Part shown: positions 4,266-37,143 of the stretch, piece after piece
Position numbering within the stretch: position 1 is the stretch's first letter
Layout of the letters: each line of letters starts with the position of its first letter
Virus record (IMG/VR): IMGVR_UViG_2778261538_000002
Strand: one strand, 5' to 3'
DNA from: a virus
Taxonomy: Duplodnaviria; Heunggongvirae; Uroviricota; Caudoviricetes
DNA length: 38,253 bases
Notes under the pieces: model-generated
What the model was told of the DNA's origin: nothing
Seen by the model: only the letters and a program-made list of their open reading frames with translations
The model's database searches: none
Position numbers and translations under genes: made by a program

Positions 4266-4747
4266 GACAGCAGCCCTCCCACCGTTTTACTGATATAGCT
4301 TAAGGCAGACGTTGCCGTGTCCTGCAGATTATTCAGTTGCGCACTAAGATCACCGAACATATCGGACAGGGATTCATCCACCCGTTTGAGCGACAAAGTG
4401 AACTCAATCCGGCGCGGCATACCATCGCGGAAAAACTCCGTTTTAGTCTGATTCAGTCCCTCAATCACATACATGCCGTAAATCGTGCCGCTGCCTTCAA
4501 TCAGAGGCCATGCTTTCCCCTGTTCTGCCATCTGCTCCAGTGCCAGCAACGACAGCCTGCCACCTGTTATCTCCGGCATAAGAACACCGGAAAGTGTCAG
4601 CATGTCGTTGTCCGGTCCCAGAAACTGCGTGGACGGACGTCGGTTTACCCGGCTGTTAGCCACATGTCGCCAGCTGCGTTGATACTGCAGTTCCTGATAC
4701 GGAACGGTGCGCAGCATAAACACGTACAATCCCAGCACCATCATCAT
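4262..4747 (-). CDS. U: tail protein U
   Basis: 161-aa ORF; start overlaps the T stop (ATGA); P2 gpU-like. Confidence 0.85.
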   Translation of the reverse strand: MMMVLGLYVFMLRTVPYQELQYQRSWRHVANSRVNRRPSTQFLGPDNDMLTLSGVLMPEITGGRLSLLALEQMAEQGKAWPLIEGSGTIYGMYVIEGLNQTKTEFFRDGMPRRIEFTLSLKRVDESLSDMFGDLSAQLNNLQDTATSALSYISKTVGGLLS

Positions 4748-7700
4748 GCGTCGTATCCCCCCTGATCGCTGTAGTTACTCCTGGCTTTTGCCTTCAGCCT
4801 GCGTTCACGTTCATCAAGCTGGCGTGCCACCTCCCGCGCAATATCCTGCGCACTTTGTCCTGGCTGCGTCTGGATGATGATCTGCGTCGGTGCCTCAATC
4901 CGGTGAACGGGCGGCACAGTAGCTGCGCGACTCACCATCGCTTTGCCGCCTTTCGCGGGAAGCGCCAAAGGATGCAACGGTGGAAGCTCTGCTGGCGCGG
5001 CAGCAACGCCCATCATTCCGGCAACAACGGCAGCCAGTGCAGCTGTATTTCTCCGGCTGGTCACATTTGCCGGGCCGTTAACAATTTCCGGCCCGTTTTC
5101 ACCGACGATGCCAAACTGCCCGCGCGGGATATACCCGCCGCTGTCATACATCCCCGCAAAGCCATATCCCCATGACGGAAAACCACCCGATGGCATCATC
5201 ACTTTGCCGTCTGCATTCACCGTCGCAGGTTGCTGACGCGTCACGCTTTCCGGTAGTTTTGCCTTTGCGGCCTCTTTACTGACAATGCCGAGTTTCTCCA
5301 GCAACCAGGAAACGCCGGATTTCAGGGAGTCCAGCGGATGCATGACCATATTCAGCCCTTCCGCCAGTGCCTCCCCGAATCGTCGCCCCATTGCCGCTGC
5401 GCTCTGCAGTTCGGCAGAGGTCGACTTAACGGGCGTCAGCAGATCAGTAAACCAGCCCCACAGAGCCTGCACTTTGTCACCAATCCACTGAAACACGGGC
5501 TTAAGTGGTTCGAATGCGGCACTGATGGGACCTACCGCCGCTTTGAGTCCTTCCACCACGCCACCGAGAAATGCGGTGATGGGTTGCCAGTATTTCCAGA
5601 CAACCAGCGCCACGCCCGCCAGTGCAGTAACCACAAGACCTATCGGACTGAGCAGAGCACCTAACAGACCAGATATGGCATACAGGGCAACGCGCAGCAT
5701 CACCAGCGGACCGGATGCCAGCACTCGCAACACTGCACCTGCGGCAGTCAGTCCACCGCGCAGTGCCGCCAGTGGATTCATAAACATCAAGGCAACAGCA
5801 CGTAAACCGGATAAACCGGACCGCAACAGTGCAACAGGCGCAGCTGCCACAGTTTTCAGGGCATTTCCCGTCAGTGATGCCGTGCGGCGCAAAGACAACA
5901 GCGGCGCAGTAAGCAAACCCGCACTGCTCCCCGATGAAGCAAACCCGCGTCGCAGCACTGCCAGTGGCGCGCCTGCCAGCCTGGATAACGCGCTGCTGGT
6001 TCGTGTTACTGCATCCGTCACCGAAGGTAACGTCTTGATACCCAGCACAGAGAATCCCAGACGGATGACTGCCAGCGGCCCCAGCACTGCAGCCAACACC
6101 ACAGCCAGGGTGCCGAGGCCCACGGTAACCGCAGCCACAACAGCGGCTACTTTCATCAGTGTGCCCGTCAGTTCCGGGTTAGCTTCCACCCAGCGACGCG
6201 ACGCCCCCGTGACGCTTTTCACCATGTACAAAATATCCATCAGCGGCTGGCGCAGCGTTTCGCCCAGGCTGCTGAAGGTGTTCTGCGCTCCGGTTTTGAC
6301 CAGCAACCACTGCGCAGAAAGTGAATCCTTGTTAATGTCGGATTCTTTCTGCATGGAGCCGAGCGCATCATTGCCCGCTGTCAGTTTTAGCTGGCGCTGC
6401 AGTTCCGGCAGGTTGTTTGCCAGTTTCGCCGCGTCATCGCCAAACTCTTTACCAAACAACATGGTCATGGCAGACAGGCGCTTATCCTGCGGAAGCGCAT
6501 TCACCTTCTCCAGTACGCGCTGGATGGTTCCCATCGCATCCTTCGTCATCTGCTTTTCAATCACTTCAGGATTGAGTTTCAGCAGATTCATTCCTTCAAA
6601 GAAACTCTTGCTCTGCATGGTGGCAATGGACAATTCACGCACCATCGCGTTTGCTGCACTGGCTGCAACCTCCGGCGCAGCACCCAGTGTCAGGAAGGTT
6701 GAACCCAGCGCCGCCGCTTTACGATAATCCAGACGGTCAGCCACACCGCCCAGGCGTTGCATGACATCAATGATGTCTGCCCCTTTCGACATGGCGTTAT
6801 CATCCAGATAGTTCAGCGCGTCACCGAGCTGTTCAATATTGCGGGTAGGGATTTTGTAGAGCTGGGCGATTTTCCCCAGACTTTCTGACAGTTCATCCGC
6901 TGGCAGCTCAAAGGCTGTTGCCGCCTTTGCTGCCGTGCTGGCGAAGGCCAGCAGGTCACGTTTCTGGTCTTCCCAGCTGTCGTCAGGGTTTGCGACGTTC
7001 ATGCGCGCACCACCTTCAACCAGTGCAGCGAAATCCACCGCACCGTTTTCCATCGGCAACTGTTCGCTGGCAGCCTTGATGGCATCCTGCATTTCATAAA
7101 AACGTGCAGTGCGGTTGCCATTATCGTCACGCAGACCATTGACCTGCTTTGCCACACCTTTCATGGCATCTTCCATGCTGGTATAGCTTTTTACTGCCGC
7201 CATCACTGGTGCGCCCATTGCCAGCCCTGCAGCCGTGGTGGTGGCTCCTGCACCTGCAATACGATCACGCACCTCCAGTGAACGAGCATAACTGGCACGC
7301 GCCGCATTCATCCTGCGCTGAGCTTCCCCCAGTCGCTTCAGCCGCGCCTCCTGTTTCGACAATTCCTGGTTATAACGTGATGTTTCACGTGCTAAACGGG
7401 CAGTTGCTCCCGCATCATCTTTCGCAGAAATTCCCGCCCGGTACAGTTCTGCACGCACAAGCGCCGTTTGCTTCTGCAAATATTTTTGTTGTTCTTCCAG
7501 GCGTTGGACTGCCAGCGTTTGCCGACCTAAAGCCACAAGGTGCCGTTGTGATGGTTGTTCCATCGCTTCCAGCTCAGAACTAAGCAAATTTGCCTTCTGT
7601 CTGGCATAGTTCAGCCTGTCGCCTAACTTTTTGTTATCGGCCTGCAGCTTGCGAAATTTTTCCAGGCTGTTACCCGCCTGATTGAGTTGCTTTAATGCGT

Positions 7701-14508: not shown

Positions 14509-14556
14509 GAGAGCGATCCTTGCACAACCGGGTAGAGTGATGTAATACAGAGCGTA

Positions 14557-14574
14557 TGTATGGAGAACCACACA
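14557..14574. promoter_or_regulatory. TGT-N12-ACA dyad (candidate Ogr box) between V and the divergent cargo gene
   Basis: TGTATGGAGAACCACACA read directly; could serve the V operon late promoter or the cargo gene. Confidence 0.35.
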
Positions 14575-14603
14575 AAAGAGAAACAATTTCTAAGGTATTT
14601 AAG

Positions 14604-15470
14604 ATGACACAAATCGCAATTTATGGATTTAATTTTACTAAAAAAATCACATTTGACGGTGGTGAGTTAACTCCTATTTTCAGTTCATGGAGTGAGTTAA
14701 AAAAAAATGGCTGGGCTAATGATAGGTACATCCTCACTGGTTTTTTCAAACCAAACTCGAATAACTACGCCACTCAACAGCAGCTTATTTTTGATTTACA
14801 AGCAGTCCTTAGTTTTATTGAACAAAAAAATGTAATCATTTCAGGAGAACTTGAAAATGATGAAACCCCTTTCAATTTCAAACCATCTCTACCCAAAAAG
14901 CTTGACAAAAAACGAGATAAGGGTGCGGGCATTATCATCATGGAAGATTATTTTGCACCAAACAGCCGAGAAAATTTTATTTGCTTAGCCATGGAAAAAC
15001 TAAATAGTAAAGCCATGCTAAAACAAGATGCCTTTAGAACATCATTTTTTAAATCAATGCTAGCTTTCCGCGACTCAATAAATTATATCGACGTCAGATA
15101 TTATTTATTATTCTCGGCACTAGAAGCACTTTGCAGATTTATTAAAAATGACTACTCCCCTGCCAAAACACCACAAATAATCACTCAGGTTTTAAAAGAA
15201 TATGGTTTTAATGTCGAAAAAACAGGACATACATTAGCTCAAAGAAACATTATGCATTACTGCAAACTCCGTCACTCGCTGTTCCACAATGGTAAATACA
15301 TTGCCTATCTTGATGAAAAAAACTCAGATGGCAAAATTGAAATTCAAGATTACTCATCAAATTTGAATTTACTGGTGCCACTTGTACTAATGAAATTCAT
15401 AGGATTTGATGACAATTATATAAACTGGGACTCATGGATTGATAGGAATCCATTTATCAGTAAAAAGTAA
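14604..15470 (+). CDS. hypothetical protein, AT-rich cargo gene at the P2 orf30 position
   Basis: 288 aa from Met17 of ORF 14556-15470 (AAGG RBS 8 nt upstream); opposite strand to the flanking tail genes V and S; Lys/Asn-rich composition unlike the neighbours; no motif I recognise. Confidence 0.7.
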   Translation: MTQIAIYGFNFTKKITFDGGELTPIFSSWSELKKNGWANDRYILTGFFKPNSNNYATQQQLIFDLQAVLSFIEQKNVIISGELENDETPFNFKPSLPKKLDKKRDKGAGIIIMEDYFAPNSRENFICLAMEKLNSKAMLKQDAFRTSFFKSMLAFRDSINYIDVRYYLLFSALEALCRFIKNDYSPAKTPQIITQVLKEYGFNVEKTGHTLAQRNIMHYCKLRHSLFHNGKYIAYLDEKNSDGKIEIQDYSSNLNLLVPLVLMKFIGFDDNYINWDSWIDRNPFISKK

Positions 15471-21445: not shown

Positions 21446-23212
21446 ATGAACACCACACTGACACCCGCAGATCTCGATCCCCGTCGGCAGGCCATGCTGC
21501 TGTACTTTCAGGGATACCGCGTAGCCCGCATTGCTGAAATGCTGGGCGAAAAAGTTGCAACCGTTCACAGCTGGAAGAAACGCGACAAGTGGGGTGACTA
21601 TGGGCCGCTGGATCAGATGCAGCTCACCACCGCCGCACGTTACTGCCAGCTCATTATGAAGGAGCACAAAGAAGGGAAAGATTTCAAAGAAATTGACCTG
21701 CTGGCGCGGCAGTCGGAGCGCCACGCGCGGATCGGCAAGTTTAACAATGGCGGCAACGAAGCCGACTTAAACCCTAACGTCGCCAACCGCAACAAAGGCC
21801 CGCGTCGTCAGCCGGAAAAGAACGTTTTCACCGATGAACAGATTGAAAAGCTGGAAGAAATCTTCCATTCCTCCATGTTCAACTACCAGCGCCACTGGTG
21901 GGAAGCCGGAAAAACCAACCGCATCCGCAACCTGTTGAAGTCACGCCAGATCGGCGCGACCTTCTATTTTGCCCGTGAAGCCCTGATTGACGCTCTGCTG
22001 ACTGGACGTAACCAGATTTTCCTTTCCGCAAGCAAGGCACAGGCCCACGTCTTTAAGCAGTACATCATCGACTTCGCCAAAGAAGTGGAGGTGGAGCTGA
22101 AAGGTGATCCGATGGTGCTTCCCAACGGGGCCACGCTTTACTTCCTCGGCACCAATGCCCGCACGGCCCAGAGTTATCACGGCAACCTGTATCTGGATGA
22201 ATATTTCTGGATACCGAAATTCCAGGAGCTGCGCAAAGTGGCTTCCGGTATGGCTATTCACAAGAAATGGCGACAGACCTATTTTTCCACGCCATCCAGT
22301 CTGACACACAGTGCTTATCCGTTCTGGTCCGGTGCGCTGTTCAACCGTGGGCGCAACAAAGCCGATAAGGTGGACATCGACCTGTCCCACAGCAATCTGG
22401 CCCCCGGCCTGCTGTGCGCAGACGGGCAATACCGCCAGATAGTCACCGTGGAAGATGCGGTGCGCGGCGGCTGTAACCTGTTCGACCTTGACCAGTTGCG
22501 CATGGAGTACAGCCCGGACGAATACCAGAACCTGCTGATGTGCGAGTTCGTGGACGATCTCGCGTCCGTGTTCCCGCTCAGCGAGCTGCAGGCGTGCATG
22601 GTGGACAGCTGGGAAGTCTGGACCGACTTTCATGCACTGGCCCTGCGCCCGTTTGGCTGGCGCGAAGTATGGATCGGCTATGACCCGGCAAAAGGCACGC
22701 AGAACGGCGACAGCGCCGGATGCGTGGTGGTGGCACCGCCAGCCGTACCGGGCGGCAAATTCCGCATTCTTGAGCGGCACCAGTGGCGCGGGATGGACTT
22801 CCGCGCCCAGGCTGACGCCATCAAAAAACTGACACAGCAGTACAACGTGACCTATATCGGCATTGACTCGACCGGCGTCGGTCACGGGGTTTATGAGAAC
22901 GTGAAAGCGTTCTTTCCTGCCGTCCGGGAGTTTGTCTACAACCCCAATGTTAAAAACGCCCTGGTACTCAAGGCCTACGACATTATCAGCCACCGCCGTC
23001 TGGAGTTTGACGCCGGACACACCGACATTGCGCAGTCATTTATGGCAATCCGTCGTGCCACCACCGCCAGTGGCAACCGCCCGACCTATGAAGCCAGCCG
23101 CAGCGAAGAAGCCAGTCACGCCGATCTGGCCTGGGCAACGATGCACGCACTGTTTAATGAACCGCTGCAGGGCGAGTCCGCCAATACCAGCAATATTGTG
23201 GAGATTTTTTGA
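21446..23212 (+). CDS. P: terminase large (ATPase) subunit
   Basis: 588-aa ORF; P2 gpP-like. Confidence 0.9.
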   Translation: MNTTLTPADLDPRRQAMLLYFQGYRVARIAEMLGEKVATVHSWKKRDKWGDYGPLDQMQLTTAARYCQLIMKEHKEGKDFKEIDLLARQSERHARIGKFNNGGNEADLNPNVANRNKGPRRQPEKNVFTDEQIEKLEEIFHSSMFNYQRHWWEAGKTNRIRNLLKSRQIGATFYFAREALIDALLTGRNQIFLSASKAQAHVFKQYIIDFAKEVEVELKGDPMVLPNGATLYFLGTNARTAQSYHGNLYLDEYFWIPKFQELRKVASGMAIHKKWRQTYFSTPSSLTHSAYPFWSGALFNRGRNKADKVDIDLSHSNLAPGLLCADGQYRQIVTVEDAVRGGCNLFDLDQLRMEYSPDEYQNLLMCEFVDDLASVFPLSELQACMVDSWEVWTDFHALALRPFGWREVWIGYDPAKGTQNGDSAGCVVVAPPAVPGGKFRILERHQWRGMDFRAQADAIKKLTQQYNVTYIGIDSTGVGHGVYENVKAFFPAVREFVYNPNVKNALVLKAYDIISHRRLEFDAGHTDIAQSFMAIRRATTASGNRPTYEASRSEEASHADLAWATMHALFNEPLQGESANTSNIVEIF

Positions 23213-24237
23213 TGGGAAAGAGTAAGAAAAACCGCGCTGCGGCGACGAACCAGATCCAGCATAAAAACCAAACTTCAGCCGAAGCATTCAGCTTCGGTGA
23301 TCCCGTTCCTGTTCTGGACCGCCGCGAATTACTGGACTATGTGGAATGCGTACAGATGGACCGCTGGTATGAGCCACCAGTGAGTTTCGACGGGCTGGCG
23401 CGAACCTTTCGCGCCGCCGTGCACCACAGCTCACCGATTGCCGTAAAGTGCAACATTCTGACCAGCACCTACATCCCTCATCCGCTGCTCAGCCAGCAGG
23501 CTTTTTCACGTTTTGTGCAGGACTATCTGGTATTTGGTAACGCCTACCTGGAGAAACGCACGAACCGCTTCGGTGAAGTGATCGCCCTTGAACCTGCCCT
23601 GGCGAAATACACCCGACGCGGGTTAGACCTAGATACCTACTGGTTTGTGCAATACGGTATGACAACCCAGCCGTATCAGTTCACGAAAGGCAGCATTTTT
23701 CATCTGATGGAACCGGACATCAACCAAGAGATCTACGGCCTGCCCGGTTATCTTTCTGCCATTCCGTCAGCCTTGCTCAACGAGTCCGCCACGCTGTTCC
23801 GCCGCAAGTATTACATTAACGGCAGTCATGCTGGCTTCATCATGTACATGACCGACGCCGCGCAGAACCAGGAAGATGTGAACAACCTCCGTAATGCGAT
23901 GAAAAGCGCCAAAGGTCCGGGCAACTTCCGCAACCTGTTTATGTACTCGCCGAACGGCAAAAAGGACGGACTTCAGATTATCCCGTTGTCAGAAGTCGCG
24001 GCGAAGGATGAATTTCTGAATATCAAGAACGTGAGCCGTGATGACATGATGGCTGCGCACCGCGTGCCGCCTCAGATGATGGGGATTATGCCGAATAATG
24101 TCGGGGGATTTGGGGATGTGGAGAAGGCCGCAAATGTATTTGTGCGTAATGAGTTAATTCCGCTTCAAAGAATTATACAAGGATTTAACGGATTTATTGG
24201 TGACGACATCATAAACTTCGAAAAATATAAATTATAG
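23209..24237 (+). CDS. Q: portal protein
   Basis: 342-aa ORF, ATGA-coupled to P; P2 gpQ-like. Confidence 0.9.
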   Translation: MMGKSKKNRAAATNQIQHKNQTSAEAFSFGDPVPVLDRRELLDYVECVQMDRWYEPPVSFDGLARTFRAAVHHSSPIAVKCNILTSTYIPHPLLSQQAFSRFVQDYLVFGNAYLEKRTNRFGEVIALEPALAKYTRRGLDLDTYWFVQYGMTTQPYQFTKGSIFHLMEPDINQEIYGLPGYLSAIPSALLNESATLFRRKYYINGSHAGFIMYMTDAAQNQEDVNNLRNAMKSAKGPGNFRNLFMYSPNGKKDGLQIIPLSEVAAKDEFLNIKNVSRDDMMAAHRVPPQMMGIMPNNVGGFGDVEKAANVFVRNELIPLQRIIQGFNGFIGDDIINFEKYKL

Positions 24238-24266
24238 AAAATAGGCCTGTAATCAGGCCTAGTATA

Positions 24267-25346
24267 CTAACATTGTTTACATAAATCAGAAAAACTACCA
24301 CCGAAATAATACAGTGCAGATTTATCATTTAGTTCTTTAAAAACTTCACACGCACGCTGGTGTATCTCAATAGCACTAGATTTATTTCGTCCAATAATAA
24401 CAGTCTCTTTTTCAGTACTATCGCCATCCAGAAAAGTCTTCAAAAGAAAATTAATAATAAAGTCTTCCTTTGGGAAAGAATAACCTATAAAGATCAACAG
24501 ATCTGCTTGTCTCAACTGGGTAGAGGATTTCACAAAAGCTGTCTTAAAGTATTTATCCCCATAGTCTTGTTCATTTGAAGGCAAGATAATATTTGGAACA
24601 ACTTTTGCGTTCAATAATGAATCATAATCTATTTTAAAACCATCCCTTGCAGCAACAACCTCAAATCCTCCATTAAGCTTATACAAACCTATACCTTTAG
24701 GCTGAGGACACACTAATATATTATTATGATGCACAGGAAAACCCCGATTAACTGAACGTTCAGGGAATGCATGATGTAGCACTTTATCAATAACTATATC
24801 GTAGTTTGTTGTGACTACATCCAGTGCTGAAGCTTCCTGTAAACTCTTAAAGAAAGAAATAATATTCCTTTTATTCTGCCCAAATTTTGCAGTTTGACTT
24901 AGCTTTAAATCATTTGCCGGTATTTTTTTTGCAAACTTATTTTTTACATATAGTTTTACTTGTGCCTCAAACAACTCAAGCGTATGCCTATCAAGATACG
25001 ACGGCAATAAACTTGGATATCGCTTATAAACATCCAATGCATATTTAAAACTCTTGAAAACATTAGCTTTGTCATCTAAACCTGCATTAGCATCCGCCCA
25101 TTTAAATTTAAGACTGTCGAACAAAGAAAAAAAACCATACTCATCAATATTTTCTAATGCTTCGTCTTCAGAGATGGAAAAGACTTCATTACTCAATGGG
25201 TATTTGTCATCCCAGGCTTTAGAAAATCCTGCTCCGAGAAAAACACATACTCTTCGCTCTCTTATTTTTGATTTCAATGTGGCGAAGGATGTAATTTCTA
25301 AATTATTAGGTGTCAAAATATCACCATCATAAGCAAAGCTAGTCAT
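24267..25346 (-). CDS. SIR2-like domain protein (candidate NADase effector)
   Basis: 359 aa; RVCVFLGAGFS Rossmann motif near the N-terminus, TTNYD motif, His cluster (VLHH, PVHH) and IFIGYSFP motif, which I recognise as the SIR2_2 (PF13289-type) pattern; AT-rich; starts 14 nt after the ATPase stop. Confidence 0.7.
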   Translation of the reverse strand: MTSFAYDGDILTPNNLEITSFATLKSKIRERRVCVFLGAGFSKAWDDKYPLSNEVFSISEDEALENIDEYGFFSLFDSLKFKWADANAGLDDKANVFKSFKYALDVYKRYPSLLPSYLDRHTLELFEAQVKLYVKNKFAKKIPANDLKLSQTAKFGQNKRNIISFFKSLQEASALDVVTTNYDIVIDKVLHHAFPERSVNRGFPVHHNNILVCPQPKGIGLYKLNGGFEVVAARDGFKIDYDSLLNAKVVPNIILPSNEQDYGDKYFKTAFVKSSTQLRQADLLIFIGYSFPKEDFIINFLLKTFLDGDSTEKETVIIGRNKSSAIEIHQRACEVFKELNDKSALYYFGGSFSDLCKQC

Positions 25347-25359
25347 GTTTTTCTCACGC

Positions 25360-26589
25360 TTAGTTTTTTATATCAAGAAAAGCTGGAACTAATCCAAATT
25401 CGCCACGTAAATATTTGGCAGACACTTTAGCATCTTTCCTTACAGAAAATACCGTAGCATTAGTTATTATCGACGCTTTAGATGAATCCTTGACTATAAT
25501 ATTAAGCTCATCTCTTCTAAACACATCATCTAATAAAGGAATATTATGTGTAGACATAATAAACTGCACACCATTTTTACGGCAGGTTTTATCAAATATT
25601 TTTTTGATTAGTGCACTTGCCAAAGAATAGTGAATAGATGAATCTATTTCATCCACATAAAGTGTAAAATCATATTCACTAGCCCAAATCAATATTGCTA
25701 AAAATGTTAAAACATTTAGTGTGCCTTGGGAAAAAAATTCATCCCTACGGTCAGGGCCTATTCTAGTAAAATCACCATCATCATTTTTTATGAGATAAAC
25801 AAATTTATACTCATTATCTTCGCCAAATCTTACAAATTCAACTTTATCTATATGCAGCGGCGACTGAATAACCATTTCATTATAGGTATTTAAAATTCTT
25901 TGACCACTCTCATTTAATTTTTCATTTCCTTCCTCACCTGATAACTGGCGCTTAAGTTGTCCTTCAACAAATTTAAGACTTGGATTTTTGAATTTTTCAG
26001 AGTAATAAGGCAATTGTTTTAATGCCCAGCGTTGGGTTTCAACAAGAGCATCAATTTCTAAAGATTTTGCAAAAGTTACAACAGCTCCACTTTCTCTTAA
26101 GACAGGATTAATCAACGACTCGTATTTTTTTAAGTCGGGCTTTTTGAAAACCAACCCATTTTCATTGCGAATAAAAATACATTGTTCCCTTGCACTTTTT
26201 CTTATCGGTCTAATGTATAAATACTCATCTACAATAACTTCATTTAAAACTGACACACCATAACGGACGAAGTTTTTTTGCTCTTCATCAATCAGTATCG
26301 CTTCATAGGAAGTAGGTTTGTTACGACATTCCTTATTTAGAAGGAAAGGCATATGCAATTTGTGTAATGTGTCACTATGAATTGAATTTGCAAATTCAGT
26401 AATAGCATTTATTAATTGTGTTTTACCAACACCATTTCCGCCTATTAATGCGGCAAATCTGTTTACTCTTAAACCATTCGCTAATGTCACGATATGTTCA
26501 GGATGCTCATCCCCAATTGAGGAAGCAAAACTAAGAACCTGTCTTTCGCGAAAGCTCTTGTAATTTTCTAAACTGAATGCAACTAGCAT
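25360..26589 (-). CDS. ABC/AAA_15-21-type ATPase (candidate defense sensor)
   Basis: 409 aa; Walker A GGNGVGKT, Walker B LYVDEID, H-loop-like FIMSTHN; GAGGA RBS; AT-rich; no TOPRIM or coiled-coil evident. Confidence 0.75.
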   Translation of the reverse strand: MLVAFSLENYKSFRERQVLSFASSIGDEHPEHIVTLANGLRVNRFAALIGGNGVGKTQLINAITEFANSIHSDTLHKLHMPFLLNKECRNKPTSYEAILIDEEQKNFVRYGVSVLNEVIVDEYLYIRPIRKSAREQCIFIRNENGLVFKKPDLKKYESLINPVLRESGAVVTFAKSLEIDALVETQRWALKQLPYYSEKFKNPSLKFVEGQLKRQLSGEEGNEKLNESGQRILNTYNEMVIQSPLHIDKVEFVRFGEDNEYKFVYLIKNDDGDFTRIGPDRRDEFFSQGTLNVLTFLAILIWASEYDFTLYVDEIDSSIHYSLASALIKKIFDKTCRKNGVQFIMSTHNIPLLDDVFRRDELNIIVKDSSKASIITNATVFSVRKDAKVSAKYLRGEFGLVPAFLDIKN

Positions 26590-26704
26590 CTGAAGTCCTC
26601 ATTTTTGCGTAAAAAACGCATTTTTGACTATTTCGGTAATGTAATCCAGTGCTAACGCAAAAGCAACTTAACATTTTATGTTATATTATTAATTATGTAT
26701 CCGC

Positions 26705-26735
26705 GCGCGCTCGTATCCCCGCCACGCCTGCCCGC
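26705..26735. other. putative cos site (cohesive end)
   Basis: - strand reads GGCGTGGCGGGGATACGAG; the first 13 nt match the P2/186 cohesive-end sequence as I recall it (GGCG[A/T]GGCGGGGAAAGCA). Confidence 0.5.
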
Positions 26736-27037
26736 TTTATGCAGTGGTTTTCATGCACCTGCATGACATGAGTAAAAGCCCGCCAGTTCTAGCAGGTCTC
26801 TGCAAAAACGATCCTCAATCGATCATGCGATTTCATGCAGCATAGTCATGCACAGCCGAGGGAAGCGTAAATCCGTATCTGAATGACCGCTGAAAAGCGA
26901 ATCATACGGGTTTACAAAGATGAAAGTCCGCTGTGAACGAGAAACGGACTATGATACTAACAAGAGAGCATCACTGTTAATATTTGAACAATTAATGCTC
27001 AGCTATTTATCTATTTTACAATCAGAAAGGACTTGTA

Positions 27038-27424
27038 ATGGTTACGGTTGATGAATTAAAGATGAAATATCCGGACGCGAATGCCTGGCAAGTGGGCGAC
27101 AGCCCTGAACTGGCTAACGAGCTTGCAGCACTTATCAAAAAAGGGATTAAAACGGCCTCCTGCGGCTCTTATGCCTCTTACCAGAAGGAAGAGTTTGCCC
27201 CAAGGATTGGGAGCTATAACATCATCCTTAACGGCCAGGATGTACCGGTATGCGTGACCCGGCTAGTGTCGATGCGACTGGTGCGTTTTTGTGATGTTAC
27301 TGCCGAGTTCGCTCGCAAGGAAGGTGAAGGCGATTTGAGTCTTGAATATTGGCAGAGAGAGCATCAACGATTTTTTACATGTGAAGGTTACTTTTCTGAC
27401 GATATGGAGCTGATTATGGAATAG
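27038..27424 (+). CDS. ASCH-domain protein
   Basis: 128 aa; ASCH/PUA-like pattern (LIKKGIKTASCG ... FARKEGEGDLSLEYWQREHQRFF); AAAGGA RBS. Confidence 0.7.
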   Translation: MVTVDELKMKYPDANAWQVGDSPELANELAALIKKGIKTASCGSYASYQKEEFAPRIGSYNIILNGQDVPVCVTRLVSMRLVRFCDVTAEFARKEGEGDLSLEYWQREHQRFFTCEGYFSDDMELIME

Positions 27425-27638: not shown

Positions 27639-27872
27639 TTAATGCAGCCAGCTGTCGTCTTCCCACACCTTCTGCATAATTTTCATCACTTGTTTTCTTT
27701 CTTCATCCAGTTGCAGTCCGGTCAGTTCCACACCGTTAGAGCTACCTTTACGGATACGAATTACCGTTTTGGGATACAGGGGGCGCAGATTGCGGTAAAG
27801 CTCGGATTCAAGGGCGTCCAGGGTAGACTGGCTAATCTTCTGCTCTTTATCGATCATTATTTCAATGCGCAT
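27639..27872 (-). CDS. DinI-family protein (C-terminal part of a 186 Tum-like SOS module)
   Basis: 77 aa from Met25 of ORF 27639-27944 (MRIEIMIDKEQ ... WEDDSWLH), clearly DinI-like. Confidence 0.75.
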   Translation of the reverse strand: MRIEIMIDKEQKISQSTLDALESELYRNLRPLYPKTVIRIRKGSSNGVELTGLQLDEERKQVMKIMQKVWEDDSWLH

Positions 27873-27882
27873 AAAAGTCACC

Positions 27883-28071
27883 TCAACTGATGACATCCAT
27901 TGAGCGGTTGTATTCGTGGGTTCTGATTTTTGCCATGAGTTCATCTGTCAGTTCAGAAACCCACTGCAGGGCCAGCCCCTTCTCTTCATCACTACACTCA
28001 CTAGCCGCTACAAGCTTAAGAAAAAAATCAATGCGCTGGAGCTTCAAAGACTCCAAAAAATAGTCCTGCAT
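27883..28071 (-). CDS. small protein upstream of the DinI-like gene (possible Tum N-terminal/antirepressor part)
   Basis: 62 aa from Met35 of ORF 27883-28173; AGGAGG RBS; overlaps the DinI-like ORF out of frame. Confidence 0.55.
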   Translation of the reverse strand: MQDYFLESLKLQRIDFFLKLVAASECSDEEKGLALQWVSELTDELMAKIRTHEYNRSMDVIS

Positions 28072-28099
28072 TTTTCCTCCTATGACACCACAAGCAATA

Positions 28100-28130
28100 C
28101 TGTACACATAACCACTATTTATATTTACAG
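28100..28130. promoter_or_regulatory. putative LexA (SOS) operator overlapping the promoter of the tum-like operon
   Basis: CTATTTATATTTACAG (28115-28130) is one mismatch from CTGT-N8-ACAG; adjacent CTGTACACATAACCAC is a weaker site; TTTACA -35-like element on the - strand. Confidence 0.45.
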
Positions 28131-28224
28131 TATATAATAATCTTACTGATGTAAAACGTTTTTTTACGCTCATCAGCCTGATATGCCTGGTATTATTAAG
28201 AGCACGAATTGTTAACCCGCGTAA

Positions 28225-30639
28225 TTAATACAGGTTCCGCCATTTATCATCCTCCTGCAGACGCTGGTTCCGATAGAAGATACGCAGGCCTGCTTCTGAC
28301 GGAATACTGCCGCCGCGAAGGAGTAAATCGACCTCTTTCTCGCTGCCATCAAATCCTCTGGACTTCAGCTCATAGACGAGCTGCAGTCGTTGATGGTCTG
28401 TAATTCGCTGTTTGTAGTCTTTACGCCGTATCGGTTTAACCAGGCGTAACCTTGCAGCCAGTTCCCGGCGCTCTTTTTTGCTCATACTGTGCAGGTAATC
28501 GTGCAACTCCTTGTCATCCATGCGGGTAATGTCCGTTCTGGTGTCCCCATCAGCTGATTTATCTTTCTCCTGTTGGTTCAAATTTTCAGCAAGGGGACAG
28601 TTATTGCCACGAGTCCAAGGGGCGCAAGCGCCCTGGTCGGCTGCCGCCTCCTGAACGTCAACGGCCTTACGAACCATTTTCCACTTCACGGCATGAGTGC
28701 AGATCTTGCCCTCTGCAATGGGTGACCAGATGCCATAAATACGAATGCCGTGATCGCCATAGGCGGTCGGCTCTTCGTTAATTTCATAAGCGGTTCTGAT
28801 GAGGTGATATTTGCGGGGAACCAGTACGCCGCCCTGCTTCATGATGTAGGTGGCAAAACAACCAGCATCAGCAGCAGCCAGGATGGCATCAAGGCGCGGG
28901 TTATCCAGTACCGGCGCACCTGCTTTTTTGTCGCCCTGTTGCCTTGCCGCCTGACCAGCCAGCAATCGCAGTTCACGGTAAGCCTGACGCCCCGGAATGC
29001 CAAAGAAGCGGAATTGCTGAACACGATGCAGAGACGCCCAGGCATTAACGTATTCAGCGTTATCACGCAGGGATTTACCCGTTTCCTTACTGATCTCGCC
29101 AGCCAGACCACGCCCGTCAATGTTCTTACTGATGTATTTCGCGATGTAGCTTGTTGGCGTACCTTTGCGCGGGTTTATCAGCTCAGACTTAAAGCGTGGT
29201 CCCGTGTTATTACCCAGCTCCTCGCGGTCTTCACGAATGGCAAACTTACGCAACAAAGCAGTAATGGCGCGGCGATCTTTTTTGCGCATAAAACACAACA
29301 GGTGCCAGTGAACTGTACCGTCATGATGCGGCTCAGCCACCCGCACGCCATACCAGCGCAATCCGGCTTTGTGCATCGCCTTACGAAATGCAGCAAACAT
29401 GCCGACCAGATAATCACTGCTTTGTCTTACCGTCGCATTTGTCCAGGTCGGGTTGGGCCTGCCGTTATTTAGCGTGGAATGGAAACGTGACGGACAGGTG
29501 ATGGTGTAGAAAACGGCGCAGTCACCGCGCATTTCCGCGATAAGCTCCAGACCTTTAACACAGGCCATCATCTCATTGCGGCGATGCGCAGGGTTGCTGC
29601 TGCTGGCGTTTACCACATCCTCCATGTCCAGCGTGTCGCCGTCTTCGTTCACCAGTTCATGAGAACGGAAAAACTCCAGCGACTTACGGCGCTGCTCACG
29701 TTTATGCATCACGGCTTCATAGCTGACATAGGGAGATGCTTTTTTGCTGACCAGGCAAACAGCACGCAACTGCTCTTCCCGCCATTCGCAACGCATCTTC
29801 CATAATTTCCGGTACCACCAGTCGGCGCACAACATACGCGCCAGCGAACCCGGAATGAGTTCATAGGGCACGGGTTTACGGCGGTTTCTTTTCCGGCGGA
29901 GTTGCTCAAACGCAGGCGGTATGACATCCAGTCGCAGGGTTTCTGCTGCCACCTTTTCCCATGTCTTGCGGATTTCTTCTGGCTTAACATCATCGGTGGC
30001 GTACAAATCACCACAAGCGGCATCAAGACACATGCTCATATGCGCAGCGACAAGAGTAGACAGGCGTTTCACCTGATCCTGACTCATTTCAGGCAAGTTC
30101 AGCAGGCCGTCCAGCCCTTCATGGCTTGCCATAAAGCGAAAAGAAGTGGATAGCTGACTCTCGCGTACATGCTCCAGTCGTTCCAGACATGGCTTAATCG
30201 TCTCACGCAAATAGCGGGAATAAGCCTTTGGCCTGCCCAGGCTGCTGAAGTATTCAATACGTTGCATCAGCGGCTTGCTGATATGGGAAGGCTGGGCGTT
30301 AACGTCCGCCAGTATGACCATGTCCGGATTAAAACGCTGCTGCTCATGCGCCAGCTTTGCCCGGCTAATGAGCTTATCCTGCTCCATTTCGCGTTGGACA
30401 GGATCACGGGATTCATTAAAGAAATAACGCTCCCAGACCTGATCACTCAGTGCCTCGAGGCGCAGTTGTTCCTGCTCGTTATCGGCAGCGTACAGAGTGA
30501 TCAGGTTTGAAAGCGCAGAAACCGGCGCAACTTCCGCCGGGTCCAGATAAGGGTTAATAGCCTTTTTCGGGCTGTTCCATGAGAATGCTGCGGCGGCCTC
30601 GTTAAAGCCGCTGCAGTTGTTCATATCAGCATGGCTCAT
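28225..30639 (-). CDS. A: replication initiation protein A (rolling-circle nickase)
   Basis: about 804 aa from the ATG at 30639 (ORF track begins at an upstream TTG); HUH-type [10 protein letters not shown] motif and tyrosine pair YIAKYISK; ATGA-coupled to dam. Confidence 0.88.
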
Positions 30640-31493
30640 GCACGCACTCCGTACACGACGGAACAATCCACGCCACGCGAAGGATCAAATCCTACCCAGC
30701 AGCGCGGCCCGGAAACAGCGATGATTTCTGTTGCAGATTTACTCTCACCAGCTGCCACGCCGATGCTGCGTTTTGCCTTGATGTAGTGGTGAGTAAAATT
30801 GCGATACAGCGAACGGATCAGGGATGTGTCACTGTTAGAAACAATGACCGGATGTCCTTCTGATGACCGATGTTCAAGAACGGATGCCAAGTGATACTGG
30901 TCATCTTCAGTGAAGCCGTCAGTGTGATAGCCGGAAAACGTACCGTCATAAGGCGGATCGCAATACACCACATCCCCCGCCTTCAACATCGCCAGCGTTT
31001 CATCAAAGCTTGCGCAGATAAACGTTGCCCGCTGGGCTTTCTCTGCAAATGCGCGAATTTCTTTTTCAGGGAAATACGGATTTTTATAATTACCGTACGG
31101 AATGTTGAAATGCCCGCTCTTGTTATAGCGACATAACCCACGGTAACCATGACGATTGAGATACAGGAAATATACCGCTTTCATGAAATCAGTAATTTCA
31201 GTGGAGTAATTAAACTCCTGCCTTATGTTGTAATAAGCCACCTCCCTGTTTGCTTCCTCAAATAAAGCTCTGGCACGAGATATAAACGCCTCGCAATCAG
31301 CAGCAACCTTTTTATAGAGGTTGATTAAATCAGGATTAATATCCGCAACAAGATAGCTGGGGTAATCCGTCTCCATCATCACAGCACAGGAACCCGCGAA
31401 AGGTTCAACCAGTCGCGGGCCTGCAGGAAGATGTTTTTTCAGTTCGGACATAATGGCGGTTTTATTTCCCGCCCATTTCAGGATGGTGCTCAT
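30636..31493 (-). CDS. dam: DNA adenine methyltransferase (Dam-like)
   Basis: ORF 30636-31553 trimmed to Met21 ([11 protein letters not shown]); motif [10 protein letters not shown] and motif IV DPPY. Confidence 0.85.
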
Positions 31494-33632: not shown

Positions 33633-34583
33633 ATGTCAACTCAAAAATTCACATTTCGCCATATCAAAGAGGATGCGAAAGCCATTGTTATGCAGAATCG
33701 TGGGGGACAGAAAGTCATTGAGCGAATACTCAAAGCTTATGGCTTCAAGTCACGCCAAGCGTTCTGTAACCATCTTGGTATTTCACAAAGTACGATGGCC
33801 AATAGATATGCTCGCGATACATTTCCTGCTGATTGGGTTGTTATATGCTCAATGGAAACAGGAGCATCTTTGGAATGGCTGGCGTTTGGTTCTGATGCGG
33901 CAGAAGAAATACTCTCAACTGCTCCAAATGGATACAACGAAGACGACCAGCGAGATGACGTTGAAAGTGACAATCATATACCTTCCTTTAATTTTCATAA
34001 TGATCATCAAGTCGATTTCAATCAGGGAGGAAAAGCGGCAATAGAACGGATAGTTAAGGCTTATGGCTTTAAAACTCGTCAAGCACTGGCAGATCATCTT
34101 GGTATATCAAAAAGTACATTAGCTACACGCTATATGCGTGACTCATTCCCTGCTGATTGGATAATACAGTGTGCCCTTGAAACTGGATTCTCATTGAAAT
34201 GGCTTGTTGATGGGCAAGGACTTAATAAAAGTTCACAAAATGAAAACATTGTGTGCATAAACAAGTACGTGCTTGCCGATGGTGCACTCGAAATGAAGGG
34301 TAACTACATTTTTGATAAGTCCTTTGTACCTAAGTCGATTAAAGATCCAATGTTAATATTTGATGGCAGCAGGATATACTTAGCTGAGGGGAACTTTGAC
34401 GAAATTAGCGATGGATTGTGGTTTGTTGAAATTGAAGGAAAAATCAGTGTTCGCGAGGTAATAAGAATACCGGTAGGTAAAGTAAGAGTAACGAGCTCAA
34501 ACTCAAATATTACTTTTGACTGTGCAATTAATGAACTCAAACCGGTTGCAAAATGCCAGTTCAACCTAATGACTATAATATAA
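33633..34583 (+). CDS. cI: CI-type immunity repressor with duplicated N-terminal HTH domain
   Basis: 316 aa; two tandem copies of a 186-CI-like HTH module (ERILKAYGFKSRQAF...HLGISQSTMANRY..FPADW and ERIVKAYGFKTRQAL...HLGISKSTLATRY..FPADW) plus a CI-like C-terminal domain. Confidence 0.8.
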   Translation: MSTQKFTFRHIKEDAKAIVMQNRGGQKVIERILKAYGFKSRQAFCNHLGISQSTMANRYARDTFPADWVVICSMETGASLEWLAFGSDAAEEILSTAPNGYNEDDQRDDVESDNHIPSFNFHNDHQVDFNQGGKAAIERIVKAYGFKTRQALADHLGISKSTLATRYMRDSFPADWIIQCALETGFSLKWLVDGQGLNKSSQNENIVCINKYVLADGALEMKGNYIFDKSFVPKSIKDPMLIFDGSRIYLAEGNFDEISDGLWFVEIEGKISVREVIRIPVGKVRVTSSNSNITFDCAINELKPVAKCQFNLMTII

Positions 34584-34614: not shown

Positions 34615-35733
34615 ATGTCTAGAAGTTTTGCTATTTGGGGATGCCGAAACTACGCTAAAGGCCCAGGAGAGGATTATAATGAGACTCAAGCAGATTTTAT
34701 AAACGAACTACACATCAACTTTTGGAATATCACATCCCAAAAATGCTATCATCTAGATTTTGGCATATCATTTTCTCGCCCCCAAGATAATGAAATTTCA
34801 GAACAGGGTGCAATCTGTTTATTTTTACCGTTTGTAAAAGAAAAAGATGACTTCATTGATTTAAGTACGAACCTAGATAGCAGCAAAGAACTGATCACCG
34901 CGGTTTTTAATGAATACGTCATAAATAAAGACTCAATAAACGAGAAACACTTATTATTAAATTTAACACGAAAAGGTAAACTAATAGTTAATACAAAACT
35001 TGATTTTCAAGGGGGGGCATTCGACAAAAGAATCACATTGAGAAAGAGGAATGATGGGACATATGTATTTTTCCATCTGCAGGATTGTTTGTCTAATTGC
35101 AATAATTGCAATTACTACATCAGATTCAGAATTAACCTAAATGAATCTGATGTTGAAGCAATTGTTAAAACATTCTATCCAAAAGATTTATTCTTAAAAA
35201 GCAATATTGAACGTTCTGATATTATAGATTTCAGAATTAACGAACAAAGAAATTTGCCAAACGAAGTCGCAACCACACTGGCCAGCGCCTCTTGCACTCC
35301 AAGCAAATATCATTTTTTCGTTATACGAGATATGGTTGACGAAGCATCGGCATCAGGTTCAAGCTATCAAGGTTGTCGTATTCTTGAATCAGAGACATGG
35401 AAAAAATACTTTTCAAATAATGTCAATTTTGGTAAGAACGATCCTATGATTTACCACTGGAAAGCTAAAAAGGATGATGGCGCACGGCTAGGTGACTTCT
35501 CTGTAGTAGTGAAGTTCAAGACTACTAAATCAAAAATTAGTAAAATATTTACATATATGTTCTATGCTGCAGCCATAGCATACATAATGAAATTTATTCC
35601 AACAGATGGTGTGCATAAAGACATTTATCTAATTTGCACCATTGCATTTATTGTAGCTTACATTGCCGCTCACTTTATTAAACCACAAAAATTATCCAAC
35701 TTTATTGCACTGGTGAAAAAATGGAAAAATTAA
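34615..35733 (+). CDS. hypothetical protein with C-terminal transmembrane helices (cargo gene 1)
   Basis: 372 aa; large soluble N-terminal region, two hydrophobic helices near the C-terminus; AT-rich; 32 nt after the cI stop. Confidence 0.7.
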   Translation: MSRSFAIWGCRNYAKGPGEDYNETQADFINELHINFWNITSQKCYHLDFGISFSRPQDNEISEQGAICLFLPFVKEKDDFIDLSTNLDSSKELITAVFNEYVINKDSINEKHLLLNLTRKGKLIVNTKLDFQGGAFDKRITLRKRNDGTYVFFHLQDCLSNCNNCNYYIRFRINLNESDVEAIVKTFYPKDLFLKSNIERSDIIDFRINEQRNLPNEVATTLASASCTPSKYHFFVIRDMVDEASASGSSYQGCRILESETWKKYFSNNVNFGKNDPMIYHWKAKKDDGARLGDFSVVVKFKTTKSKISKIFTYMFYAAAIAYIMKFIPTDGVHKDIYLICTIAFIVAYIAAHFIKPQKLSNFIALVKKWKN

Positions 35734-36800
35734 AACACATTCAGTTTAATGAAGTTAATTTTAACGATGTTTTTTTTGACTCCTTAAAAAAAGACTATCA
35801 ACATGGATTTATCGATTGGTTCAATAAAAAATGTAATTCTATCGAAGAAAAAGCTTATGTCTTATATAATGATGACAACACAATTGATGGTTTTTTATAC
35901 TTGAAAATTGAGCGTGGTATTATTGACGACGTAATACCACCTTTGACTCGTGCTAAACATCTAAAAATAGGCACATTTAAATTCAACCCGAAGGGGACTC
36001 TACGAGGACAAAGATTCCTCAAAAAGATTTTTGATCATGCACTAAAAGAAAAAGTAGATGATATCTATGTGACTGTTTTTGAAAAACATGATTATTTAAT
36101 TAGACTATTCAAAATTTATGGTTTTATTCATGTTGCTACAAAACAAACTGCTAATGGTAGTGAACAAGTCTTAGTAAGAGAGATGAATAAAAATCATCTT
36201 ACAGGGGATATTTTGTCTGATTATCCGTATATAAATAATAGCAACGATGAAAACAAATATCTGTTATCCATATATCCTGAATTCCATACAAAACTGTTTC
36301 CTGATTCGATACTCACCACAGAGTCCCCTGATATAATCACGGATGTATCTCATGCGAATAGCATTAGAAAAATATATATATGCAGAATGCATGACGTAAA
36401 AAAAATAAAAAGACATGACATTTTAGTTATTTACAGAACAAGTGACAAAGAAAACAGAGCGTATTATCGCTCTGTCGCAACGTCATTATGTGTAGTTGAA
36501 GATATTAGACATATTGATTCTTTTTATAGTGAAAAAGAATTCATACAGTATTGTACACGATACAGTGTATTCTCTGAAAATGAATTAAAAAAATCCTATC
36601 AAACAAAAAGATACCCTTACATTATTAGTTTTACATATAATCTAGCTTTACCTAAAAGAATAAACCGTGCTAAACTAATCAAAGAAATTGGTTTAAATCC
36701 TAAAAACCGTTGGGGTGTTGTTAAATTAACCGATGAGCAATTTGACGATATAATTAAACTTGGTGCTGTAGATGAAAGTATTATTGTCAATAAAACCTGA
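35721..36800 (+). CDS. hypothetical protein, N-terminal GNAT-like fold fused to an unknown C-terminal domain (cargo gene 2)
   Basis: 359 aa; N-terminal 150 aa have GNAT-like topology (…KIGTFKF…RGQRFLKKIF…YLIRLFKIYGF…); overlaps neighbouring genes at both ends. Confidence 0.65.
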   Translation: MEKLKHIQFNEVNFNDVFFDSLKKDYQHGFIDWFNKKCNSIEEKAYVLYNDDNTIDGFLYLKIERGIIDDVIPPLTRAKHLKIGTFKFNPKGTLRGQRFLKKIFDHALKEKVDDIYVTVFEKHDYLIRLFKIYGFIHVATKQTANGSEQVLVREMNKNHLTGDILSDYPYINNSNDENKYLLSIYPEFHTKLFPDSILTTESPDIITDVSHANSIRKIYICRMHDVKKIKRHDILVIYRTSDKENRAYYRSVATSLCVVEDIRHIDSFYSEKEFIQYCTRYSVFSENELKKSYQTKRYPYIISFTYNLALPKRINRAKLIKEIGLNPKNRWGVVKLTDEQFDDIIKLGAVDESIIVNKT

Positions 36801-37143
36801 ATTTGTTGAAAAAATCCTTAATGGGACGAAGAAGTTTGAATTCAGGAAAGGTATTTTTAAAAAACCGGATGTAAAATCTGTGGTTATTTATTCAACAATG
36901 CCTGTCGGTAAAGTTGTTGCTGAATTTGACATTGCAGATGTTATAGAAGATAAGCCGAGTATTGTATGGGAAAAAACAAGCCAATACGCAGGTATCAGTA
37001 AACAATTTTTTGACTCTTATTTTCATAGCAAAGAAAAAGCCTTTGCTATAGAAATTGGTAATCTAAAAATCTATGACCAACCACTTCATCTAAGTTCATT
37101 AGGTGATAACATAACGGCCCCGCAATCATATCGGTACTTATGA
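36772..37143 (+). CDS. ASCH-domain protein (cargo gene 3)
   Basis: 123 aa; MKVLLSIKPEFVEKILNGTKKFEFRK is a typical ASCH N-terminus. Confidence 0.7.
   Translation: MKVLLSIKPEFVEKILNGTKKFEFRKGIFKKPDVKSVVIYSTMPVGKVVAEFDIADVIEDKPSIVWEKTSQYAGISKQFFDSYFHSKEKAFAIEIGNLKIYDQPLHLSSLGDNITAPQSYRYL

Follow-up and report, generated by a model that had tools for sequence, protein, structure and literature searches.

A rare prophage cassette pairing an AbiLi-type ABC ATPase with an NG-type SIR2 protein: a candidate anti-phage defence system in the Q–cos cargo slot of a P2-like prophage

The IMG/VR record IMGVR_UViG_2778261538_000002, a 38,253-nt stretch of DNA referred to as the window in the rest of the text, holds a P2-like prophage in which two AT-rich genes are inserted between the portal gene Q and the cos site. 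The first codes for an ATP-binding cassette (ABC) ATPase and the second for a SIR2-fold protein (Table 1). Comparison of their sequences with those of known systems indicates that the pair is an effector-swap variant of the AbiL/PARIS-class systems, with a putative function assigned by analogy. We consider it very probable that the pair is a defence system and, with a lower degree of confidence, we favour its being an ATPase-controlled NADase, that is, an abortive-infection cassette carried as prophage cargo of the P2 Q-cos-A hotspot and acting on nicotinamide adenine dinucleotide (NAD+). To our knowledge, ABC-ATPase sensors of the AbiL/OLD/PARIS class have so far been known with nuclease, helicase or reverse-transcriptase partners.

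Pfam analysis of the product of gene 1 returned AAA_21 (9e-14) and AAA_15 (8e-10), both above their gathering thresholds, together with a match to SMC_N. The protein carries a Walker A motif (GGNGVGKT, residues 49-56), an ABC signature (SQGT, 287-290), a Walker B motif (LYVDEID, 309-315) and an H-loop (STHN, 346-349), all four of which are conserved in an alignment of 31 family sequences (A2), as is a C-terminal motif, FSVRKD...Y..G.(F/Y)G..P, that is common to AbiLi. Among the best 25 of its 70 PADLOC matches, the AbiLi model PDLC02335 (2.1e-51, 173 bits) stood far above generic matches to AriA, PDC-M12A, PtuA and others. A Foldseek search with the AlphaFold model of the ATPase (predicted local distance difference test, pLDDT, of 86.3) gave PtuA of Septu as the best match (E ~1e-12), followed by PtuA of retron I-A, Rad50, SMC heads and Thermus OLD, and the family profile matched PtuA, OLD, AriA and SMC heads in the PDB. 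Family profiles were needed for this last comparison, as single-sequence phmmer searches of the PDB returned nothing for either protein. Pfam, the conserved motifs and the fold search thus agree on an ABC-type ATPase, as had been predicted from the motifs: gene 1 codes for a Rad50/SMC-like ABC head devoid of transporter domains, as found in the OLD/AbiL/PARIS/Septu defence class. Since it lacks both a TOPRIM domain and a long coiled coil, with only short helices at residues 151-242 of the model, it can be classed neither with the OLD nucleases nor with proteins of the SMC/LmuB type, and the earlier statement that a protein of this size (409 amino acids) is too short for SMC/Lamassu or OLD types holds. 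NCBIfam 20.0 produced sub-threshold matches only for the ATPase and no family for the SIR2 protein, while PHROGs assigned the ATPase to a family of unknown function and the SIR2 protein to none.

Relatives of the ATPase that are 25-29% identical over 98% of its length are followed by an RloB gene (PF13707) in three of the three unrelated contigs read. In PADLOC, the two relatives tested scored as AbiLi (7e-95 and 3e-97) and the two partners tested as AbiLii (8e-25 and 7e-26), so these RloB-linked relatives are bona fide AbiL systems. Since an AbiLi-family ATPase is followed by RloB in the relatives but by a SIR2 gene in the window, the effector position next to this kind of ATPase is taken by another effector gene. 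The original prediction had been unable to assign the pairing to a named system; this stands for the pair but not for the ATPase, which can be placed as AbiLi-type with RloB/AbiLii-paired relatives. The stretch of the ATPase from about residue 190 to 285 could not be aligned between the RloB-linked and the SIR2-linked groups, and sequence comparison suggests that effector specificity might reside there. In Vibrio parahaemolyticus (L004, 4781-6001), the ATPase is 28% identical to that of the window, though its linked SIR2 is 39% identical. This Vibrio ATPase is approximately as distant from the window ATPase as true AbiLi proteins are, and the SIR2-linked ATPases may not form one tight clade.

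The product of gene 2 matched SIR2_2 in Pfam (1.3e-8, 35.5 bits against a cutoff of 24.5), and its complete list of PADLOC matches consists solely of SIR2 models (Aga_SIR2 and generic SIR2). A structure model built from 42 homologues (pLDDT 90.5, predicted template-modelling score, pTM, of 0.88) found as its best Foldseek matches the SIR2 subunits of Escherichia coli and Paenibacillus SIR2-HerA (E 1e-13 to 1e-8, TM ~0.55), with ThsA and classical sirtuins next. There were 68 PDB matches at E <= 1e-3, and the best 50 listed were all SIR2-HerA SIR2 subunits, sirtuins or ThsA. The NAD-binding motifs GAGFS (residues 38-42) and TTNYD (179-183, including N181 and D183) of this Rossmann-type fold are invariant or nearly so, as is GYSFPKED (288-295, GYSFP.ED in the family). 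Pfam, structure search and alignment therefore bear out the SIR2 fold and the GAGFS/TTNYD/GYSFP motifs that had been read from the sequence, and profile searches and structure prediction together confirmed the folds of both proteins. The 'His cluster' that the original prediction had included in the SIR2 signature has to be withdrawn, as VHHNN (203-207) is a variable stretch and the family alignment contains no conserved His at any position.

What occupies the catalytic position instead is an Asn. In the family profile, LYKLNGGFE aligns to KLWKLHGSIN of 8w9l_A, a Paenibacillus SIR2 in which catalysis is attributed, putatively, to N163, D165 and H212 (PMC11472057), which makes N181, D183 and N225 their equivalents and places the invariant Asn225 of KLNGG (223-227) where the catalytic His would be. 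A search over 1.84 billion representative proteins yielded 68 relatives of the SIR2 protein at E <= 1e-30, and more than 200 matches were aligned with hmmalign. Nearly every sequence better than ~1e-19 reads K-[LI]-N-G-G-[FL]-E at this site, while the next, more distant SIR2_2 proteins mostly read K-[LI]-H-G-S-x-N, from which it follows that gene 2 belongs to a distinct 'NG' clade. The replacement of HG by NG is found in all members of the clade (~100 representatives). Across residues 221-229 (alignment A1), the change is a concerted one, from K[LI]HGSxN to K[LI]NGG[FL]E: the acidic E229, four positions past Asn225, accompanies it, and an acidic residue at position 259 (E/D) is conserved as well; either of the two might provide the base lost with the His.

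A SIR2 domain with NG in place of HG has been characterised in PaAvs5-1, which hydrolyses NAD+ on infection; its N153A and N153Q mutants lost defence and N153H was weaker than wild type (PMC12931631). Our first reading, that the His-to-Asn change denotes an inactive or non-NADase enzyme, was dropped as the lead in view of this precedent. Given an active NG variant in Avs5, the substitution lowers the case for a 'canonical sirtuin' and not that for an 'NADase', and NAD+ hydrolysis would most likely be the chemistry of gene 2, by analogy with Avs5, a different protein family.

At every locus examined in which the SIR2 protein is at least 38% identical to that of the window, the SIR2 gene is immediately preceded by the ATPase gene in the same orientation, with an overlap or a gap of at most 13 nt. 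The original prediction of closely spaced genes was right as regards linkage, although the gap in the window is 13 nt and not 14; the homologous loci, with an overlap or a gap of 1-8 nt, show that close linkage is conserved. The pair is kept in E. coli E9 (L001), in a different P2-like prophage with a SIR2 of 56% identity (L017), in a P4-like satellite of Providencia adjoining AbiE (L015/16), in V. parahaemolyticus beside a Zot/secretin filamentous prophage (L004-6) and in an Alteromonadales contig (L002/3). It also lies beside Q in all seven IMG/VR matches, all of which are P2-like (L022-L028). The pair has thus remained together while moving between hotspots. In a set of 16 loci that includes redundant ones, the identity of the ATPase to its window counterpart rises and falls with that of the SIR2 protein (r = 0.98), as fits inheritance as a unit. 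The open reading frames (ORFs) are real genes rather than chance ones, as judged from full-length homologues in many genera (25-94% identity) and from the confident structure models, and the cassette contains no other ORF of at least 50 amino acids on the same strand.

To determine how common this cargo is, we compared positions 24100-26800 with 5,426 complete E. coli genomes by megablast. Matches to the flanking sequence, which comprises the cos region and the end of the portal gene, were present in 1,267 genomes, a single one of which carries the pair (1 of 5,426 overall). This sole carrier, strain E9 from poultry, has a pair that is 99.6% identical and annotated 'AAA family ATPase' and 'SIR2 family protein'. 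Other prophages hold in the same Q-cos slot a TIR protein, a PIN protein with a hypothetical protein, or a RES-family enzyme. The rarity of the pair among flank-matching genomes and the presence of alternative cargo indicate that the locus is accessory cargo and not a conserved structural or packaging component of the phage lineage, a possibility that had been raised with the original prediction. The gpA-gpQ region of P2-like phages was described as a defence hotspot by Rousset 2022 (PMC9122126) and confirmed as such by Vassallo 2022 (PMC9519451), and the cassette, situated between gpA and Q beside cos in the variable segment, is cargo of this hotspot. The slot is therefore already published, and the cargo pair itself is rare. 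The two E9 proteins, WP_000959164 and WP_097511163, figure in the raw arrangement list of Rousset 2022 (Table S5A, PMC9122126) as 'AAA_21 + SIR2_2'. In tblastn searches, no homologue of the SIR2 protein was found in deposited phage genomes, and plasmids yielded three, all distant.

In P2, cosL and the stop codon of Q are 167 nt apart, and this non-coding stretch contains the terminator tQ, consistent with the earlier statement that P2 has essentially no coding sequence there; in the window, the same interval measures 2.47 kb and is occupied by the two genes. ORFs, GC profile and alignment to P2 cosL all agree with the predicted placing of two AT-rich genes between Q and cos. GC content is ~0.33 over the pair and ~0.55 in the flanks, with a range of 0.31-0.37 over 24001-26500 and of 0.52-0.60 in the phage genes on either side, which indicates a foreign origin of the pair. 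With up to 3 mismatches allowed, a scan for the P2 cos 19-mer found no match in the window. The cos site was located instead by aligning the minus strand to the annotated P2 left end, where 14 of 19 positions are identical to cosL and the adjacent GCGCGC is kept. The flank common to other P2-like prophages starts at about 26684. On the opposite side, Q, convergent with the cassette, is annotated 'phage portal protein' at the E9 locus (99.6% identical). Immediately past the stop codon of gene 2 and oriented towards the end of Q, the GC-rich hairpin of Table 1 is likely a bidirectional terminator closing the cassette. Translation of the ATPase would be served by a ribosome-binding site (GAGGA, 6 nt ahead of the ATG), while the spacer between the genes offers a purine-rich stretch that weakly resembles a Shine-Dalgarno sequence. 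Between cos and the ribosome-binding site of the ATPase, ~15-30 nt ahead of the start codon, lies an inverted repeat of 15 nt, tgcgttttttacgca (coding strand; 26606-26620), which may serve as an operator, form a structure in the 5' untranslated region or have arisen by chance.

Table 1. Coordinates of the cassette, its boundaries and the genes on the gpA side of cos in the window.
Feature	Coordinates	Strand	Length, basis or remark
Gene 1, AbiLi-type ABC ATPase	25360..26589	(-)	409 aa; ORF
Gene 2, SIR2_2-fold protein, 'NG' type	24267..25346	(-)	359 aa; ORF
Intergenic spacer gcgtgagaaaaac	25347..25359	(-)	13 nt, ATPase stop codon to SIR2 ATG
GC-rich hairpin TAGGCCTG-ATTA-CAGGCCTA, then T-run TTTTCTATAA	24242..24261	(-)	Terminator scan, sequence
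AT-rich leader, cos to ATPase start	26590..26709	(-)	120 nt; sequence
cos cohesive end GGCGTGGCGGGGATACGAG, right boundary of cargo slot	26710..26728	(-)	Alignment to annotated P2 cosL
Portal gene Q, left boundary of cargo slot	23209..24237	(+)	ORF
Replication gene gpA	28225-30666		ORF
ASCH-domain gene	27038-27424	(+)	Pfam 1.5e-19; gpA side of cos
DinI-like gene	27639-27944	(-)	1.3e-22; gpA side of cos
96-aa ORF without family	27883-28173	(-)	gpA side of cos

Among the closest named systems is AbiL (AbiLi and AbiLii, from Lactococcus pND861), or RloAB, with which the pair shares the ATPase-first order, the tight linkage, the AbiLi match, an end-to-end alignment (98% coverage) and the C-terminal FSVRKD...Y..G.(F/Y)G..P motif of the ATPase. 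The difference lies in the effector, which has a SIR2 fold here and is the TOPRIM nuclease RloB/AbiLii in AbiL. As no AbiLii/RloB gene is adjacent and gene 2 matches SIR2 models only, the pair is not a member of AbiL. PARIS likewise combines an AAA_15/AAA_21 ABC ATPase (AriA) with a separate effector (AriB, DUF4435/TOPRIM) and occupies P2 and P4 hotspots, but the AriA matches of our ATPase are weak and generic (4e-16 to a 304-position AAA_21-like model; E 8e-3 to AriA in the PDB). Furthermore, AriB is a tRNA-cleaving TOPRIM nuclease whereas gene 2 is a SIR2, without a DUF4435 or AriB match in Pfam and PADLOC. PtuA of Septu (PtuA/PtuB) and of the retron I-A PtuAB provides the best structural matches of the ATPase (8eea, 8ee4, 8sux and 9n6c) and its best profile-to-PDB matches; however, TM is ~0.45 at 11-15% identity, and the Septu partner is an HNH nuclease instead of a SIR2.

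The systems that do contain a SIR2 differ in other respects. SIR2-HerA (Nezha) and PD-T7-2 (SIR2/DUF4917 with a HerA-like ATPase) are also two-gene ATPase and SIR2 combinations of E. coli mobile elements, and of the solved structures the SIR2 subunit of SIR2-HerA comes nearest to gene 2 (13-17% identity). Yet their ATPase is a HerA/FtsK-type hexameric translocase encoded after the SIR2, whereas the ABC ATPase comes first here, and SIR2-HerA has the canonical HG (H212) where the window protein has NG. No HerA structure figures among the top 50 Foldseek matches of the ATPase, and Pfam gave no DUF4917 match in gene 2. Avs5 (AVAST type 5) shares GAGxS, TTNxD and the NG signature of its SIR2 domain, a likeness of motifs, but in Avs5 the SIR2 domain and a STAND NTPase form one polypeptide, as opposed to the separate genes found here. 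Lamassu, by the 2022 account attributed to Millman, reportedly joins an ATPase of the SMC/ABC superfamily to a swappable effector, of which SIR2 is a possible one. A Lamassu paper mentions SIR2 (PMC12663957). LmuB, however, is SMC-like with a long coiled coil, unlike the short helical insert of the ATPase described above, and no LmuA/LmuB or PD-T7-2 model occurs among the best 25 of 70 PADLOC matches of the ATPase or in the SIR2 list. Membership of AbiL, PARIS, SIR2-HerA, PD-T7-2 and Lamassu-SIR2 was thus rejected in each case on a defining feature. GAPS systems of Vibrio GMT islands, considered for the Vibrio homologues, were set aside, as the GAPS paper makes no mention of SIR2. Burman 2024 lists TOPRIM-Old, DUF4435, RloB, DUF4276, UvrD, DUF262, DUF3996, HNH and reverse transcriptase as partners of AAA15/21 defence ATPases, and SIR2 is not in that list. 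No name for the pair was found in PADLOC-DB 2.0.0, NCBIfam 20.0 or the literature searched, which did not extend to the paper by Krishnan et al. 2020 classifying ABC ATPases, where such a combination may be mentioned. The search for a named ATPase and SIR2 (AAA_21/AbiLi) system retrieved Rousset 2022 only, the rest being unrelated. The ATPase and SIR2 combination, as well as the NG-type SIR2 clade outside Avs5, appear to be undescribed.

From these comparisons we infer complex formation, a trigger, NADase chemistry and an abortive outcome, by analogy with characterised systems. The ATPase belongs with the sensor/scaffold ATPases of AbiL, PARIS, Septu and OLD, and the SIR2 protein would be its effector. 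Translated together, the two proteins would form a complex in which the ATPase holds the SIR2 inactive, until the ATPase senses a cue from the phage, or its ATP state changes, and the SIR2 is freed or activated. The active SIR2 would then hydrolyse NAD+ and arrest the infected cell, so that the superinfecting phage would be blocked and the lysogen population protected. In PARIS, AriA sequesters AriB and frees it when a phage protein binds (PMC11464382), and in SIR2-HerA the SIR2 alone is auto-inhibited and its ATPase partner switches on NAD+ hydrolysis (PMC11472057); the comparable ATPase-nuclease architecture of Septu was also used for the model. A broader proposition can be put forward, namely that AbiL/OLD/PARIS-class ABC-ATPase sensors also drive an NAD+-depleting effector, in a distinct, unnamed two-gene family of P2, P4 and other gamma-proteobacterial mobile-element hotspots whose whole SIR2 clade has a His-less NG...E site. 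We regard the arguments for and against it as evenly balanced.

Several observations weigh against the proposed abortive-infection cassette. The 'AAA_21 + SIR2_2' arrangement stands uncurated in the list of Rousset 2022 (PMC9122126), far under the cut-off of 10 occurrences, and no phage-protection experiment on the pair was found in the literature searched. A promoter scan of the minus strand of the 120-nt leader revealed no sigma-70 promoter with at least 9 of 12 matches, so that expression of the pair is assumed. In one of the P2-like IMG/VR contigs (L026), two ORFs (3920-4375 and 4379-5068) stand in place of a single SIR2 gene beside an intact ATPase gene, this disrupted copy being either a pseudogene or a sequencing error. 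Gene 2 resembles the SIR2 NADases of solved structure weakly in sequence (E 8e-4), the catalytic His is absent and the NADase reading, itself an argument by analogy, rests on the single precedent of Avs5. Finally, NG-type SIR2s of ~30% identity lack this ATPase and stand alone or behind small unannotated proteins, which implies that the SIR2 is not strictly dependent on the ATPase and can work with other partners. The neighbours of these distant SIR2s comprise KAP NTPase, DUF4238, PDC-M01 and S8-peptidase/AAA genes, a context that still looks defence-like. The small proteins beside them (224 amino acids without family in L007, 5239-5913; 208 amino acids with DUF4468 in L020, 5322-5948; 361 amino acids without family in L019, 7277-8362) may be alternative sensor partners of the NG SIR2 clade.

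The same facts can be read in other ways. The pair could be a toxin-antitoxin or addiction module that stabilises the prophage, with the SIR2 as toxin, the ATPase as sequestering antitoxin and defence as a secondary effect. PARIS, the relative of the ATPase class whose mechanism is best known, behaves as a type II toxin-antitoxin pair in which AriB is toxic and AriA the antitoxin (PMC13064643; PMC11464382), and the tight linkage and co-divergence of the two genes fit a toxin/antitoxin stoichiometry. Nevertheless, the cassette is always found in defence-filled hotspots and not beside maintenance functions, and P2-type prophages, being chromosomally integrated, are stable without such modules; the two roles are not mutually exclusive either, since PARIS fills both. 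We judge a primarily addictive role improbable. The pair could also be a defence system whose SIR2 does not deplete NAD+, and would instead ADP-ribosylate a protein or nucleic acid or serve as a nucleotide sensor, arrest coming about by another route. The lack of a conserved His in the family and the concerted passage from HGSxN to NGG[FL]E, suggestive of a remodelled active site, speak for such a role, as does the fact that classical sirtuins are transferases rather than hydrolases. This too we find improbable, because the sole characterised NG-type SIR2, PaAvs5-1, is an NAD+ hydrolase (PMC12931631), all the characterised SIR2 defence effectors in the papers cited here deplete NAD+ and the cassette has no second effector gene.

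It is quite unlikely that the cargo serves the phage itself through lysogenic conversion, counter-defence or regulation of host metabolism. Although the hotspot also houses non-defence cargo such as plasmid-partition genes and cytolethal distending toxin, and ASCH and DinI genes lie across cos, both domain families of the pair are strongly associated with defence and the pair is absent from all but 1 of the 1,267 flank-matching E. coli genomes. Moreover, its presence in a P4-type satellite hotspot by AbiE and in non-P2 contexts shows that it is not tied to P2 biology. Hardly credible, to our mind, is a degenerate or inactive remnant, for instance of a system of the Lamassu-SIR2, SIR2-HerA or PD-T7-2 type: for all the rarity of the pair and the one homologous copy with a split SIR2, both ORFs are intact, their motifs are conserved over ~100 cluster representatives and the ATPase, which is not HerA-like, comprises an entire ABC head and the distinct, conserved C-terminal motif of AbiLi. 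An ATPase-controlled NADase remains the interpretation that we favour.

The prophage contains further AT-rich segments. Three genes on the plus strand (34615-37143, GC 0.30-0.36), between the CI repressor gene (33633-34583) and the integrase gene (37222 onward), code for a 372-amino-acid protein without family, a 359-amino-acid protein matching PDC-M11A (6.7e-139) and a 123-amino-acid ASCH protein matching PDC-M11B (1.7e-49) in PADLOC. With this cluster, the prophage probably has a second cargo slot occupied by a further candidate defence cassette. Among the late/tail genes, GC drops sharply to 0.31-0.36 at a 304-amino-acid ORF on the plus strand (14556-15470), for which neither Pfam nor PADLOC gives a family; where it lies points to the Z/fun-type hotspot of Vassallo 2022 (PMC9519451), the second cargo slot of P2. 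On the gpA side of cos (Table 1), the ASCH-domain gene is missing both from E9 and from the IMG/VR match whose SIR2 is 100% identical (L022), indicating that the two sides of cos vary independently.

Taken as a whole, the cassette involves no new principle, given that hotspot cargo, modular effectors, this sensor class, this effector class and ATPase-controlled SIR2 NADases are all established. If functional, it would extend the outputs of the AbiL/PARIS/Septu-class ABC-ATPase sensors to NAD+ depletion and would offer a clear example from nature of effectors exchanged while the sensor scaffold is conserved. The matched pair of systems, with the same ATPase scaffold joined to RloB or to SIR2, would bear on how such ATPases hold and release unrelated effectors, and the divergence of ATPase residues 190-285 makes this region the obvious candidate when asking what binds the effector and what senses the phage. 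For the carriers, a rare and compact cargo of 2.3 kb, missed by current defence-finding tools, could alter phage susceptibility. If the pair is functional, Avs5 would also no longer be the only family to use in immunity a SIR2 without the 'absolutely conserved' catalytic His, as the cassette would represent a second, independent one, which would suggest that the NG site is widespread among defence sirtuins.

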